From Nitrospirota bacterium (GTDB lineage Bacteria > Nitrospirota > UBA9217), in assembly GCA_963790205.1 (NCBI GenBank), contig CAWBNQ010000002.1, positions 64,001 through 128,000 of the forward strand: 64,000 nt of DNA. Reading direction: 5' to 3'. Positions 16,880-24,669 of this stretch are shown piece after piece. The notes under the pieces are model-generated. The model was given only the letters and a program-made list of their open reading frames with translations, was not told the DNA's origin and made no database searches. Position 1 is the first letter of the stretch; each line of letters starts with the position of its first letter. Made by a program: the position numbers and the translations under genes.

Positions 16880-17243
16880 GACCGTTCCTCCGGGGCAATG
16901 CGTTCCGTGCATTGTTTTGTTAGAGTATATAGACAGGCCGTTCTTTGTCAAGAAATTTGAGGCCGGGAACATCCGGGGGCCTGAAAAAAAGTCTGCCAAA
17001 GGGGAGGCCGTTCTCCTGTTGAAGCTGTTCTTCAAGGGCCGCGGTAATTAAATCTCGGAATGTGGATTCGTAAAAGCGGGAGCAGGGGACCCGGGGGGGC
17101 GGGTCAGTCTCTATCCGTACCAGCTGAGAACCTCTTAGACATAATGGTTGACAGTTGAAAATCAAGTGACCTGCCCCTTGCAACGTGGGTTATACTTGGG
17201 AACCCGGTTCCCAAATACAGAGCCACAACCAAGGAGGCAGGTC

Positions 17244-18353
17244 ATGAAACATTCTATCATTTTTGTCGGACTCGATGTACATAAAGATTCTATTGATATC
17301 GCCCTGGCCGATGACGGCAGAAACGGAGAGATCAGATTCTACGGCACCATCGGTGGCGATCTGACGTCGCTCGACAAGGCGATCCGTAAATTCCGCCGTT
17401 CTGGTACTGAGCTTCGCTTCGTCTATGAAGCAGGCCCCTGTGGCTATGAGATCTATCGACATCTGACCGCTCAAGGGTTCCGCTGCGATGTTATCGCGCC
17501 TTCGATGACACCGAAGAAGAGCGGCGATCGTATCAAAACCGACCGACGGGATGCATTGTCCCTGGCCCGACTCTACCGGGCGGGCGAATTGACGCCAGTT
17601 TACGTTCCCCGCGAGGATGACGAAGCCATGCGTGATCTCGTTCGTGGCCGGGGGGACGCCGTAAACGCAACACGGAAGGCCCGGCAACGCTTGAGCGCTT
17701 TCATTCTCCGCCATGGCTTCCGATATTCGGGCAGAAATGCCTGGAGCGTAGTCCATCTGCGGTGGCTTGCGGATATCAAGATGCCGCATCCGGCCCAGCA
17801 AATCACGCTTCAGGAGTACATCAACAGCATCGAAGAGAGTTCTGAGCGTGTTGACCGCTTGACCGATCAGATATTGAACCTGATTCCGGCATGGCGCATG
17901 GCACCGGTCGTGGCTGCTCTCCAATCTCTTCGGGGCGTGGCACCCATCGTTGCAACAACTATGGTGGTCGAGATCGGAGACCTCCGACGATTCGATAATC
18001 CCCGGCAGCTCATGGCCTATCTGGGATTGGTACCCTCAGAAAACTCCAGCGGCCAGACCACCAAGCGGGGCGGCATCACGAAAACGGGCAATAGCCATGC
18101 TCGGCGAGCCTTGATCGAAGCAGCACAGACATATAGTTTCCCTGCCAAGGTCAGCAGGGTGCTCCTCAAGCGTCAAGAAGGCTTGCCACGCGAGATTAAG
18201 GAGATCTCCTGGAAAGCCCAAGTGCGGCTCTGTGGACGATTCCGCAAACTCATGGCCAAGGGAAAAAGCAGAAACGGGACCATAACCGCGATCGCGCGAG
18301 AACTTTCCGGGTTTATGTGGGCCATTGCCAAGGAAGTACCCATGCCTGCATAA
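17244..18353 (+). CDS. IS110 family transposase/recombinase (DEDD domain plus Tnp domain)
   Basis: FVGLDVHK, YEAG and KTDRRDA (D-E-D-D); LGLVPSENSSG serine motif; GGITKTGN; RBS AAGGAGG. Confidence 0.97.
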   Translation: MKHSIIFVGLDVHKDSIDIALADDGRNGEIRFYGTIGGDLTSLDKAIRKFRRSGTELRFVYEAGPCGYEIYRHLTAQGFRCDVIAPSMTPKKSGDRIKTDRRDALSLARLYRAGELTPVYVPREDDEAMRDLVRGRGDAVNATRKARQRLSAFILRHGFRYSGRNAWSVVHLRWLADIKMPHPAQQITLQEYINSIEESSERVDRLTDQILNLIPAWRMAPVVAALQSLRGVAPIVATTMVVEIGDLRRFDNPRQLMAYLGLVPSENSSGQTTKRGGITKTGNSHARRALIEAAQTYSFPAKVSRVLLKRQEGLPREIKEISWKAQVRLCGRFRKLMAKGKSRNGTITAIARELSGFMWAIAKEVPMPA

Positions 18354-18419
18354 GACCAGAAACACTTTCAAAGAACGTGACAGCTATTAAGGAGAACTGA
18401 CAAGATCAGATACAACTAT

Positions 18420-18610
18420 CTAGAGCATCACCAGAGACGCGACCACGATCAGGAGAACTCTCGTTGACCCTATGGAATAAGGCCTAGCCGAACTTCCGCT
18501 CTTAGAGCGAGACAGCTCCGCGATGCAGACAAGTCATGCGGTCAAATCCGCGAATATCAGAGTGATCAATCGTCGCCGATAGGTCCCGTCTCTGGTTATG
18601 CCCTAGAGCA
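18420..18610 (+). ncRNA. Putative bridge/seek RNA in the IS110 right non-coding end (boundaries approximate)
   Basis: Closing stem (CTAGAGCAT..CCAGAGACG / CGTCTCTGG..ATGCCCTAG); internal loop with TGACCCTA and CTCTTAG matching the empty target; ATATCAGA matching the donor junction. Confidence 0.75.
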
Positions 18611-18929
18611 ATAACTAACATCATCCTTTTACACAAAGGGGCGGGGAAACTGTTTTCTCCTTGACAACTGTCAACCATATCAGGGTCAGGGCGTTCATTT
18701 TGACATTTTCCCTTTCCCCCGGCTCGCGGAGTCCCTGAGAGGGGACAGGCTGCGTTTCTGACAGCACGGCTATTGCGCCGTCTTTTGGATAGCAGGGTTT
18801 TTGCGAACGCGGCATGCATCGCCACGGCTGTGTTTGTGCTATTGTATAAGTATGCACCCAAGCAACACGAATATCTCAGGGTCATGGTGCTGCTGTTGCC
18901 CCCCCGCTTTAAACGGGATGAATTTACCT

Positions 18930-21113: not shown

Positions 21114-22802
21114 CTACGCGGTCACTTCGGTTGCCTCAACGCATTCCGCTTTGGTCTTGGACCAGCAGGGGCCGAGAATTTCCTCAAGGTCGGCCTCCGG
21201 CGTTGATGCGATCGGCTTGATGCTGAAATTCTTCACGAGCACATCGAGCACATTCGGCGTGATGAACGCCGGGAGCGACGGTCCGAGACGGATGTCCTTG
21301 ATCCCGAGATGGAGCAGCGAGAGCAGGATGGCAACGGCCTTCTGCTCGTACCAGGAGAGGACCAGCGAGAGAGGCAGATCGTTCACGCCCACATTGAACG
21401 CCTTGGACAAGGCAACGGCGATCTGGACCGCCGAATAAGCATCGTTGCACTGGCCGATGTCGAGCAGCCTCGGGATGCCGCCGATGTCTCCCAGCTCCTT
21501 GTCAAAGAACCGGAACTTGCCGCAGGCAAGGGTCAGCACCACCGTGTCCTTGGGCGCCTTTTCCACGAACTCGGTATAGTAGTTTCTGCCGGGTTTTGCG
21601 CCGTCGCAGCCGCCCACGAGAAAGAAGTGACGGATCTTTCCCGCCTTGACCGCAGCGATCACCTTATCGGCCACGCCGAGCACCGTATTTCGCCCAAAGC
21701 CCGCAAAGACTTCCTTCCCCGGCATATCTTCGGCGAATCCCGGAAGGGCAAGCGCCCTGTCGATTGCCGGCGTGAAGTCGCTGCCAACGATGTGCTTCAC
21801 ATCGGGCCAGCCCACGAGCCCGCAGGTGAAGATGTTCGCCTTATACGACTCGTGCGGTTTCTGGATGCAGTTCGTGGTCATCACGATTGCGCCCGGGAAA
21901 TGCGCGAATTCCTTGTGCTGGTTCTGCCAGGCCGTGCCGTAATGTCCGTAGAAGTGCGCGTACTTCTTGAGGTTCGGATAACCGTGGGCAGGCAGCATTT
22001 CCCCATGGGTGTAGACGTTGATTCCCTTGCCCTCGGTCTGCTTCAGGATTGTTTCGAGGTCCTTCAGATCGTGCCCGGACACCAGGAGCGCTTTGCCCTT
22101 TTTCGCGCCCAGCGGGACCTTGGTCGGGATGGGGTGGCCGTAGGCGCCGGTGTTGCCCGCGTCAAGGAGTTCCATGGTTTTGAGGTTGACCTCCCCGCAC
22201 TTCAGGACAAGACCGATCCAGTCTTCGAGGCCGCGCTCCGTCCCGGTCATGGAAGCCAGGGCTTCGCTCATGAACGCATACACGGAATCATCGGTTTTCC
22301 CGAGGATCTGCGCGTGATCTGCATACGCGGCAACGCCTTTCAGTCCGAAGAGCAGAATATCCTGGAGCGATTGAACGTCGGGGTTGACCACCACGTCGGG
22401 GACGTGCTCACGGACCGCTCTTCCCTGCTTGACGAGACCCTCGATCGTGGACTCCGGTCTAAAAGAAGCGCTCGCGTGGGCAAAATCCGTTTTGCCGTCC
22501 GACTGGCGTATTTTTGCGCCGAGCTGGTCGCGAAGTTCCACGCTCTTTTTGATCAGCTTTTCGAACCGCTTGGGATCGAAATCGACATTGGTGAGCGTTG
22601 AAAAAAGCGCCTTCGTCAAAAAAACGTTCACGTCCTGGTCCTTGACGCCGACCTTTCTTCCCTCCACGGCATAGAGCGACAGCCCCTTTAAGCTGTAGAT
22701 CAAAAGGTCCTGCAAAGCAGCAACCTCCGGGTCCTTGCCGCATACGCCGATCCTGGTGCAGCCCTTTCCATTGGCTGCCTGCTCGCATTGATAACAAAAC
22801 AT
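21114..22802 (-). CDS. hcp: Hydroxylamine reductase (hybrid cluster protein)
   Basis: MFCYQCEQ..GC...GVCGK, STLTNVDFD, SGHDL, THGEMLP, NCI, GGCDG, LACGK, GQCND and SWYEQKA motifs. Confidence 0.97.
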   Translation of the reverse strand: MFCYQCEQAANGKGCTRIGVCGKDPEVAALQDLLIYSLKGLSLYAVEGRKVGVKDQDVNVFLTKALFSTLTNVDFDPKRFEKLIKKSVELRDQLGAKIRQSDGKTDFAHASASFRPESTIEGLVKQGRAVREHVPDVVVNPDVQSLQDILLFGLKGVAAYADHAQILGKTDDSVYAFMSEALASMTGTERGLEDWIGLVLKCGEVNLKTMELLDAGNTGAYGHPIPTKVPLGAKKGKALLVSGHDLKDLETILKQTEGKGINVYTHGEMLPAHGYPNLKKYAHFYGHYGTAWQNQHKEFAHFPGAIVMTTNCIQKPHESYKANIFTCGLVGWPDVKHIVGSDFTPAIDRALALPGFAEDMPGKEVFAGFGRNTVLGVADKVIAAVKAGKIRHFFLVGGCDGAKPGRNYYTEFVEKAPKDTVVLTLACGKFRFFDKELGDIGGIPRLLDIGQCNDAYSAVQIAVALSKAFNVGVNDLPLSLVLSWYEQKAVAILLSLLHLGIKDIRLGPSLPAFITPNVLDVLVKNFSIKPIASTPEADLEEILGPCWSKTKAECVEATEVTA

Positions 22803-22901: not shown

Positions 22902-22959
22902 AGAGCATCGCAGGGTATTTTATTTTGACATTTCTTCTTTTCTCTGCTAACGTCCCTGC

Positions 22960-23094
22960 ATGCCACCCCCCTCCGCATAAAGTACGCCGGTATTGTCAAT
23001 CACATTACCTCTTTGCGTGCTATCATCTTCTTATTGAGACCCCGGACGGCAACCTTGTCCTCGTTATGAGGCAGCTGAACGATGTCTACGCAAT
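22960..23094 (+). pseudogene. Remnant of a REP-associated tyrosine (Y1/RAYT-like) transposase
   Basis: PLRIKYAGIVNHITS joined by an internal deletion to YHLLIETPDGNL...MRQLNDVY; both resemble RAYT blocks. Confidence 0.7.
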
Positions 23095-23166
23095 AGTAAA
23101 GACCTTAATGGTCTTCTTAAGGTTCTTGAAGCAGTGTATCGTTGAGACAACCTCCCCGTTCGAGGA

Positions 23167-24669
23167 GTGTACGTCGTGGAAGACTTGCCGCTTGATCAGG
23201 AACTGCACCACGAGATCTTCGGTTCCATCCTGGACAGGACCGAAATGACGCCCTTTCTGCTCCTGCCCGCACGGGACTATGCCGCTGCCCTCAAACAGGC
23301 GGCCAGGATGATGGCCAACCGCGGCTTCGACACGCTTGAAGGCGACGGGCTGGGAGAGAGCGAGCGCGAGCGCGCAGGGCACTACATCCGGCGCGCATAC
23401 GTCACTATTTTCGGCGGACTCTTCCCGTTTGTGACGAAGCAGCTGGAAGGGCTTGTTGCCCTGCGGTCTTCGAACGCAGGCCTCTACCAGAACTGCCTGC
23501 GCGCTCTCGCCGAGGCGCAAGCGGTGCTGCAGGACCCGGCCTTCCAACGCATCGTGGACGAGGACCCCCGCCACCTCTTTCTGCTTGCCTCCTCCCGGAA
23601 ATACCCCCGTGTCTTTTCCGGGTATCAGGGGAAATCGCTTGACGTGCCCTCAACCTGGCAGCAGGCCGCCTGCTGCCTCCTCAAGATGGTGCATCTGATA
23701 AAATCCGTGGAAGAGGACAGCCAGGACATCAACGACTACGTCCAACTGGGCTTTTTTCTGGAACAGCAGGGCCAGCGCCTCGATGAGCTCTTCCAGTACG
23801 ACTGGGAGCACCCGGCGCACATCCCGGACAATGAGCCCGCTCAGCGGGCTTTTGTAAAGATCTCCGCGTTCTTTCGCCGGCTGCGGGAGTCGCTGGTCTT
23901 TGACCGATCAAAAGGATGTCTCGTCTTCAACAGCGGGGACGGCGTGGACGTCGACATCGCCGAGATCAAGGCGCGGCTCAAGAGTCCGGAAAGTATGGTC
24001 ACCAAGCTGGGCAAGAATGTGGAAGGGGAAGCCTACGACATCAGGGACATCCTCGCGATCACGTTCATCCTCACGAACATCGATGACACGCTGAAGCTGT
24101 TCCATGCCCTCCAGAAGCGGGGAGTGATCCTCCAGGAGAACACGGCTTCGCACTCCATCACCCAGACGCTCTTTGGCGGGCCGGAGGACATGAAAGAGGC
24201 GATACGCAGGCTGATGATCAGCCTCTCCCGAAGCGGGGGAGGCAATGCCATGCCCCGGGAAGAGCAGCTGCTCGCGCACGCGAGGACCTTCTATGAGGCG
24301 CTGGGGATGAACACGGACAAAAACGTCCATTCCTCCCGGGGACACAGGAAGTTCCAGTGCAAGATCGCCTTTTCCCTGCCGATCCATCGCGCCTTGGAAA
24401 CGAACGAGATCATGATCCCCGGCACGCCGCTTTACGAGAGCAGGGACAAGGTCAGCAAGAAGACGGAGCAGCACACGCTGGGGGTTGAGCTGCGCATCTC
24501 CGACGTGGAGAGTTGGCGGACCTCCGAGCGCACCGGTGATTCACACCATGATGCATACAAATTCCGCCAGCTGGTCTTTGTGATGAACCGGGTCTTCAAA
24601 AACGTATTCCACTTTCCGGAAGAGGGCTTTCCTCAGCTCCGAAAGGATCAGACCGCCCTCTTCCCGTAA
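23167..24669 (+). CDS. Hypothetical protein with a divergent RelA/SpoT-like nucleotidyltransferase domain; start uncertain
   Basis: ARLKSPESMVTK, DIRDILAITFI, VELRI and HHDAYK resemble RSH synthetase motifs in order. Confidence 0.65.
   Translation: MYVVEDLPLDQELHHEIFGSILDRTEMTPFLLLPARDYAAALKQAARMMANRGFDTLEGDGLGESERERAGHYIRRAYVTIFGGLFPFVTKQLEGLVALRSSNAGLYQNCLRALAEAQAVLQDPAFQRIVDEDPRHLFLLASSRKYPRVFSGYQGKSLDVPSTWQQAACCLLKMVHLIKSVEEDSQDINDYVQLGFFLEQQGQRLDELFQYDWEHPAHIPDNEPAQRAFVKISAFFRRLRESLVFDRSKGCLVFNSGDGVDVDIAEIKARLKSPESMVTKLGKNVEGEAYDIRDILAITFILTNIDDTLKLFHALQKRGVILQENTASHSITQTLFGGPEDMKEAIRRLMISLSRSGGGNAMPREEQLLAHARTFYEALGMNTDKNVHSSRGHRKFQCKIAFSLPIHRALETNEIMIPGTPLYESRDKVSKKTEQHTLGVELRISDVESWRTSERTGDSHHDAYKFRQLVFVMNRVFKNVFHFPEEGFPQLRKDQTALFP

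Follow-up and report, generated by a model that had tools for sequence, protein, structure and literature searches.

The element and its recombinase

The window, the whole 64,000-nucleotide stretch of a Nitrospirota genome (here G000) that was analysed, contains an insertion sequence of 1,545 bp (counting the AG at its left end as its own), flanked on one side by a divergent gene for an RDD-domain protein and on the other by a rhodanese gene (Table 1). A single recombinase gene is preceded by ~105 nt and followed by ~330 nt of non-coding DNA, and the element carries a perfect 14-bp subterminal inverted repeat, with tips that extend 7 nt outside the left repeat and 3 nt outside the right one. 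The junctions read CTCTT-AG at 17132-17138, then ACATA, and ATC, then AG-GGTCAGG at 18682-18690; the coordinates given for junctions, repeats and guide arms in the original prediction, which was made from these letters alone, all proved correct. G000 possesses one further copy, 100% identical, at G000:C5:25036-26580 (the C5 copy), and the same end geometry recurs in 64 of the 83 related loci described below. These data confirm a real, apparently intact IS110-family mobile element with an IS1111 layout. When relatives were compared, the right flank was found to be conserved inside the rhodanese gene only, without conservation at the insertion site, and a search of G000 for mini-elements of this family, or for its RNA standing alone, found none.

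Table 1 Features of the insertion sequence and its flanks, in window coordinates.
Feature	Position	Strand	Basis
Left target half CTCTT	17132..17136	+	Equals 3' arm 18499-18503; in empty allele too
Insertion sequence	17137..18681	+	Identical second copy, end geometry, core polarity
Donor-derived core AG (opposite strand CT)	17137..17138	+	AG kept in 14/14 sites with GG/AA right core
-10-like hexamer CATAAT of predicted circle-junction promoter	17140..17145	+	18-nt spacer to TTGACA across predicted junction
Left subterminal inverted repeat, 14 bp	17144..17157	+	Sequence
IS110-family recombinase, 369 aa	17244..18353	+	PF01548, PF02371; NF033542
Predicted bridge/seek RNA core	18419..18607	+	Long closing stem enclosing target and donor loops; fold, paired changes
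5' target guide TGACCCTA	18465..18472	+	Complement of T-core-right flank; 142.7/175 over 35 guide types
3' target guide CTCTTAG	18499..18505	+	Same as left flank plus core; 72.4/140 for L5-L2
Putative target-loop handshake bases	18506..18507	+	First base = first base after left core, 35/35
Proposed 5' donor guide AAGTC	18531..18535	+	Pairs with left-end G-ACAT, one A-A mismatch
3' donor guide ATATCAG	18554..18560	+	Same as right tip plus core
Putative donor-loop handshake bases	18561..18562	+	First base vs first right-flank base
-35 hexamer TTGACA of predicted junction promoter	18661..18666	+	Sequence, spacing
Right subterminal inverted repeat	18665..18678	+	Sequence
Target core AG, right target half GGTCA and degenerate copy of dispersed terminal repeat	18682..18707	+	Present in empty allele; repeat pattern composed after seeing this flank

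The recombinase scores 264.7 bits against NF033542, the NCBIfam model for IS110 RNA-guided transposases (cut-off 140), and its catalytic motifs (D11, E62, D100, D103 and S269) align to those of IS621 and ISCro4; this full DEDD/Ser set in an open frame supports the intact enzyme that had been proposed. Its closest named counterparts are an annotated ISSfr2-family transposase (58% identity), ISEc45 (49%) and ISSso6 (47%), while the alignment row for ISCARN28 has the same motifs and, by eye, about two-thirds identity across its C-terminal part. Identity falls to 22.6% for ISEc66, from the cluster of ISEc11, and to 27.9% over 38% of the length for ISPpu24, from the cluster of ISKpn4. The element can be assigned to the IS1111 type by its layout, with a protein that is 23-28% identical to core IS1111 members and lies above their length range.

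A second IS110-family element, whose protein is 27% identical, was noted at G000:C3:528314-529186 and in 7 more places on C1, C3 and C11, as six full and two partial copies. It has a long downstream region and occupies one repeat-like site, with ATCC[AG]CAGA on the left and TTAC.CA on the right. Elsewhere in the window, a 562-aa ORF on the minus strand (21114-22802) resembles by eye the hybrid-cluster protein (hydroxylamine reductase).

A predicted RNA downstream of the gene

The region 18415-18612 is predicted to fold with an energy of -74.1 kcal/mol (z -5.4), a stability that none of 200 shuffles equalled, and the outer and inner stems first proposed are present in this fold; across the ensemble the two target arms are largely free of pairing (0.86 and 0.97). 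Across 16 relatives, changes on both sides were seen for 18 of 43 RNA pairs (0/500 shuffles as high), a result that we treat as supportive only, since the structure came from that same alignment and its rows are kin. Rfam returned no match to the RNA region at E up to 1.

The target loop covaries with the flanks of insertion sites

To the best 80 of 464 loci we added three loci from another search, giving 83, and used a rule blind to the flanks to find the ends of 64; the other 19 were dropped. Removal of six loci without a flank and three duplicates left 55 sites with 35 guide types. Across these, the 5' arm matches bases 1-5 of the right flank at 142.7 of 175 positions, compared with a mean of 52.3 and a maximum of 80.5 in 10,000 shuffles, and the 3' arm matches bases 5-2 of the left flank at 72.4 of 140, for which the shuffles gave a mean of 41.9 and a maximum of 61.25. 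Match rates of the 3' arm rise towards the core (0.22, 0.36, 0.63 and 0.85 from L5 to L2), and therefore only two or three bases (L2-L4) carry signal, L5 matching less often than in shuffles (0.22 vs 0.30); the 7/7 match of this arm at the window site is better than usual. In a scan that compared every RNA column with 16 target positions, predicted pairs took all seven leading places. The complete agreement of the handshake base at 18506 includes both elements that lack an A there. By a naive estimate, the chance of finding both target arms in order within 330 nt is ~5e-5.

The pattern holds among near relatives. In 12 non-overlapping pairs, chosen on the tree to limit kinship (two are not strict sisters, and positions within a pair are not independent), the guide bases that differ agreed with the element's own target in 37 cases and with the other's in 8, with 10 tied. 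The nearest relatives, from Nitrospirota, are 87-94% identical to the element, and two of them share flanks with copies in genomes of the same family. Some relatives fit poorly: L076 (0/5 on the right), L019 (0/5 on the left), L058 and L085 (both 2/5 on the right), as well as L044.

The covariation between loop and flanks on which the original prediction had staked its reading is thus strong, and such covariation of a target loop is a mark of a bridge or seek RNA; within the RNA, the top-strand match stands 5' of the bottom-strand match, as the rule for IS1111 elements has it. Other copies were expected to sit at similar sites, and here the outcome was mixed: the right flank of the C5 copy agrees with the 5' arm at 5/5 bases, but its left flank agrees with the 3' arm at only 2/5. 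Taken together, the covariation and the related site occupied by the second copy support RNA guidance with a readable target loop.

Further variants were seen among the relatives. In seven loci from several tree branches (L017, L038, L047, L060, L062, L063 and L071), the 5' arm is tuned to a REP-like repeat with a GG core. Two other sets (L045, L053, L079 and L091; L035, L061, L064-L066 and L088) sit at AA-core sites resembling integron attC ends and at sites resembling the ends of another IS. About 170 nt of extra sequence separates gene and RNA in L027-L031, L048-L051, L054 and L055, among which L049-L051 are three copies with identical flanks, and in L085 the donor-loop half of the right end is tandemly repeated.

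A proposed donor loop and a predicted junction promoter

The string ATATCAGA stands at 18554-18561, and its first seven bases equal the right tip plus core (7/7), in keeping with the donor match first reported. At both 18557 and 18558 the base agrees with the right tip in 36/37 donor types, and it occurs in two states that largely follow clades. The second donor guide, missing from the original prediction, is probably 18531-18535. Here 18531, which gave the best match of the donor scan (34/37), pairs with T, G, C and A in different elements, 18533 matches in 36/37 donor types and 18534 in 31/37, while 18532 is mismatched in all 25 ends that have A there (the third base of ACA-type ends). This 5' arm is short, with 4/5 bases pairing, and covariation of the donor arms is confounded by clade kinship, near-equal clade-driven competitors appearing in the same scan. 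In 15 of 24 other elements the putative handshake base at 18561 is the same as the first base of the target (a count reached in 6 of 10,000 shuffles), but this holds for 0/11 Nitrospirota-type rows, the window element included. By analogy with known bridge RNAs, two handshake pairs would form before the exchange and two after it.

If the ends joined as a circle, a TTGACA-18-CATAAT promoter would be expected to form. No circle junction was present among the joints listed for the contigs of four metagenome runs, where assembly into contigs loses rare forms, and a promoter scan within the window gave hits at chance level only.

The element brings its own core

At 14 of the 55 sites the right junction has GG or AA in place of AG, and at all 14 the left junction is AG. 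L019 has the reverse pattern, and L037, a dropped locus next to a contig edge, is GG on both sides. Among the empty repeats of five genomes that carry GG-type copies, CTGG occurs 203 times and CTAG 7 times. These two observations show that the left AG arrives with the element and that crossover takes place 3' of CT on the opposite strand. Since the element brings its own AG, no target is duplicated, and core polarity across the 55 sites gives no sign of a target duplication. The AG shared by both junctions and the bottom-strand CT core that had been proposed therefore stand, with the amendment that the left AG is derived from the element. The counts, 14 against 1, led us to reject a random assignment of non-AG cores to the left or the right side. 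IS1111-type seek-RNA elements make no target duplication according to PMC11187229, and the one-strand insertion model of 10.1101/2025.10.25.684509 agrees with this polarity.

An empty allele with one additional base

Two metagenome runs from peat, X1 and X2 (from one study and counted as one observation), each yielded a contig in which 17137 is joined directly to 18682, and at least 255 letters lie on either side of the joint. This empty allele shows that the element is mobile and that its ends were called with an error of no more than one base. At the joint 1,544 bases are skipped rather than 1,545, leaving one A more than predicted, so that the sole empty allele found formally contradicts the empty target originally reconstructed. 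The strain carrying it is 99.5% identical to the window, with 7 base differences over 1.66 kb of flank and a difference in the length of one G run, in which the window has one G fewer than X1 and X2. The additional A may stem from divergence between strains, from slippage during insertion, from a scar left by excision or from an assembly error at the right junction.

X1 also contains pieces identical to the element, together with other left flanks ending in T-AG or TT-AG. The three alternative left flanks from the metagenome runs were not found in G000 and therefore provide no further empty and filled pair. Pattern scans of metagenome contigs for the empty allele of this site and for the C5 flank returned nothing.

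Probable landing sites at the tips of tyrosine-transposase elements

Both copies have a right flank similar to the tip of a repeat dispersed in G000, and inverted pairs of this repeat bracket genes of ~290 aa with PF01797 and NF047646. Of 14 repeat ends, 12 start with TA-GGGTCA, to which the 8-nt 5' arm is exactly complementary (a backwards control gave one match). The repeat fits the TIRtron consensus GGGGWSAS given in PMC3733652 and 10.1101/279083, except at the first base. Near-identical elements have 26 distinct right flanks, of which 18 start with GG[TC][CA]. The RTCT that the repeat has at positions 7-10, beyond the reach of the guide, is found in 8 of these 18 and in 0/8 of the others, compared with 20 of 116 motif-matched sites in G000 (enrichment p 0.007); in this comparison ten of the 18 flanks come from one genome in which the guide is unassembled, several copies lack an assembled guide, the RTCT of L013 is possibly due to chance and the background is from G000 only. 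The ten GG[TC][CA] flanks without RTCT include that of the window itself, which is a degenerate repeat copy recognised by a pattern composed after seeing it. Simple enrichment of the target in REP sequences failed as an explanation, with Markov expectations close to the counts for most words, and the link to terminal repeats is drawn because of the sequence contexts of the sites, not from word enrichment. In searches of the open literature, we found no paper that links IS110 elements to these repeats.

Several related sequences were observed in G000. A TIR-flanked Y1 tyrosine-transposase element of ~940 bp is present at C14:99130-100070, C5:353197-354139, C1:380438-381378 and other places; its copies are 97% identical, which suggests recent movement as a unit, and several of its ends are interrupted by another IS. 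Within window positions 22925-23248, an ORF without an NCBIfam match, lies a 69-nt fragment (G000:C2:87021-87089) that is 78% identical to the tyrosine-transposase gene. At G000:C1 ~218655-218674 (minus strand), ten right-tip bases stand directly before a repeat end with no element body; 19 nt at this site are identical to the right junction in the window, possibly as a remnant or a half-match event.

A proposed mechanism and its alternatives

The window element is very probably an IS1111-type bridge/seek-RNA element. By analogy with IS621, ISEc11 and their relatives, its ends would join into a circle, building the TTGACA-18-CATAAT promoter; the downstream RNA would bind the recombinase; the second loop would read the joined ends via 18531-35 and 18554-60; and the serine would cut and exchange one strand. 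At the target, sequence comparison shows that the 5' arm reads five bases to the right of the core and the 3' arm two to three to the left; crossover falls immediately 5' of the core along the gene strand and 3' of CT on the other. The working target is approximately (T)T-AG-GGTCA, a sequence shared with the tip of the TIR-flanked tyrosine-transposase repeats, and the repeat tips would offer a supply of mostly intergenic landing sites.

The matches might instead be due to chance, or be copies of the flanks acquired after insertion, with targeting left to the protein. The arms are indeed short, but covariation that goes far beyond shuffles and extends to near relatives, and the motif common to the various sites of copies that share one RNA, make this scarcely credible. 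A seek-RNA reading, in which the target loop is the sole true guide, the protein recognises the ends mainly through the 14-bp repeats and any resemblance to a donor guide is slight or due to descent, fares better, and we consider it unlikely. The clade-driven columns that rival the donor covariation and the imperfect pairing of the 5' donor arm argue for it, as do the RNAs of 70-100 nt that suffice for IS1111 movement according to PMC11187229; it is opposed by the way 18531 tracks all four bases, by a 3' donor arm that is fully matched here and changes along with the right tip, and by a donor handshake that follows the target in other elements more often than shuffles would allow.

The relationship of the guide to the repeats can also be understood in another way. 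Repeat tips could be no more than abundant, harmless copies of a short motif, to which the guide is not adapted, and we give this reading a little under an even chance: more than half of the related insertions lie away from repeat tips, sister elements have quite different guides and the background was taken from G000 only, whereas the enrichment over motif-matched sites, the exact match of the 5' arm and the fit of other branches to REP-like or attC-like repeats, with a 5' arm that tracks even non-AG cores, argue against it. As for the additional A, insertion by slipped pairing into a target that exceeds the guide by one base, with loss of a base, or an assembled junction lacking an A, is plausible, though we rate it below even. 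Both runs skip the same 1,544 bases, with ~8 differences over 1.66 kb one of them is unlikely to be an indel that falls precisely at the crossover, the window is also one base short in the G run relative to X1 and X2, and off-target sites with insertions in the target are known from PMC11208160; half-match insertion, described in 10.64898/2026.08.31.748434, would fit the C5 copy also. Yet the empty allele comes from a different strain and a single study, the TA that precedes GGGTCA in most repeat ends fits the shorter version as ancestral, and the tandem unit around the C5 site implies that insertion there was precise.

A broader proposal, that Nitrospirota bridge recombinases combine a guide tuned to tyrosine-transposase terminal repeats, a balanced handshake unlike that of IS621 and insertion into a target one base longer, is offered as speculation that we think will probably fail as a whole. 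If true, one mobile element parasitises the ends of another, and the window locus is a natural record of a longer-target insertion.

Judged by its sequence, the element offers a compact bridge recombinase that has the look of an active one and belongs to a clade under 30% identical to those that have been tested; in it all four predicted guide arms have been located and natural retargeting can be followed among elements 87-94% identical. Natural non-AG insertions indicate the position of crossover, in agreement with recent one-strand insertion models, and the one-base discrepancy and the half-matched C5 copy bear on the off-target behaviour of bridge editors.

Comparison with known systems

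In a copy of the ISSfr2 family, ends and loop are the same as in the window element, and the arms match that copy's own flanks. In the clade of ISSfr2, ISEc45, ISSso6 and ISCARN28, guide and target differ from those of the window element, which has a Nitrospirota-type host and is under 60% identical to the named members. The bridge RNA of ISCARN28 is one of six drawn in PMC11208160, and these drawings may show the same guide layout.

As described in PMC11187229, ISEc11, ISKpn4, ISPst6 and ISPa11 share with the window element subterminal repeats, a downstream RNA, a top-strand match that precedes the bottom-strand match, a junction promoter (in the window element a predicted one), the absence of target duplication and repeat-like targets; the same text gives IS1111 transposases 330-350 aa, compared with 369 aa here. 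Subterminal inverted repeats of 7-17 bp are a trait of the IS1111 group, and those of the window element measure 14 bp.

IS621 and ISCro4, to judge from PMC11208160 and PMC11208158 and from PDB 8WT6 and 9T56, resemble the window element in the DEDD and serine sites, in two loops with left and right guides (predicted ones in the window element), in a CT core, in handshake positions (defined in PMC11208158 and putative in the window element) and in a cut 3' of CT. The IS621 handshake has one pair before and three after exchange in PMC13626964, whereas the window element would have two and two in the same register. The top-strand cut of IS621 agrees with the crossover placement inferred for the window element. 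In IS621 and ISCro4 the RNA lies upstream; in the window element the predicted RNA lies downstream, the repeats are long and the target is read opposite to the gene.

IS4321 and IS5075 reportedly target the terminal repeats of Tn21-family transposons. Like the window element, they are of IS1111 type and land in the ends of another mobile element. They differ in that the partner here is a TIR-flanked Y1 tyrosine-transposase element (a TIRtron, in the terms of PMC3733652) and that targeting is partial. The arrangement seen at the window locus is already published for IS1111-type elements, and it leaves the known mechanism unchanged.
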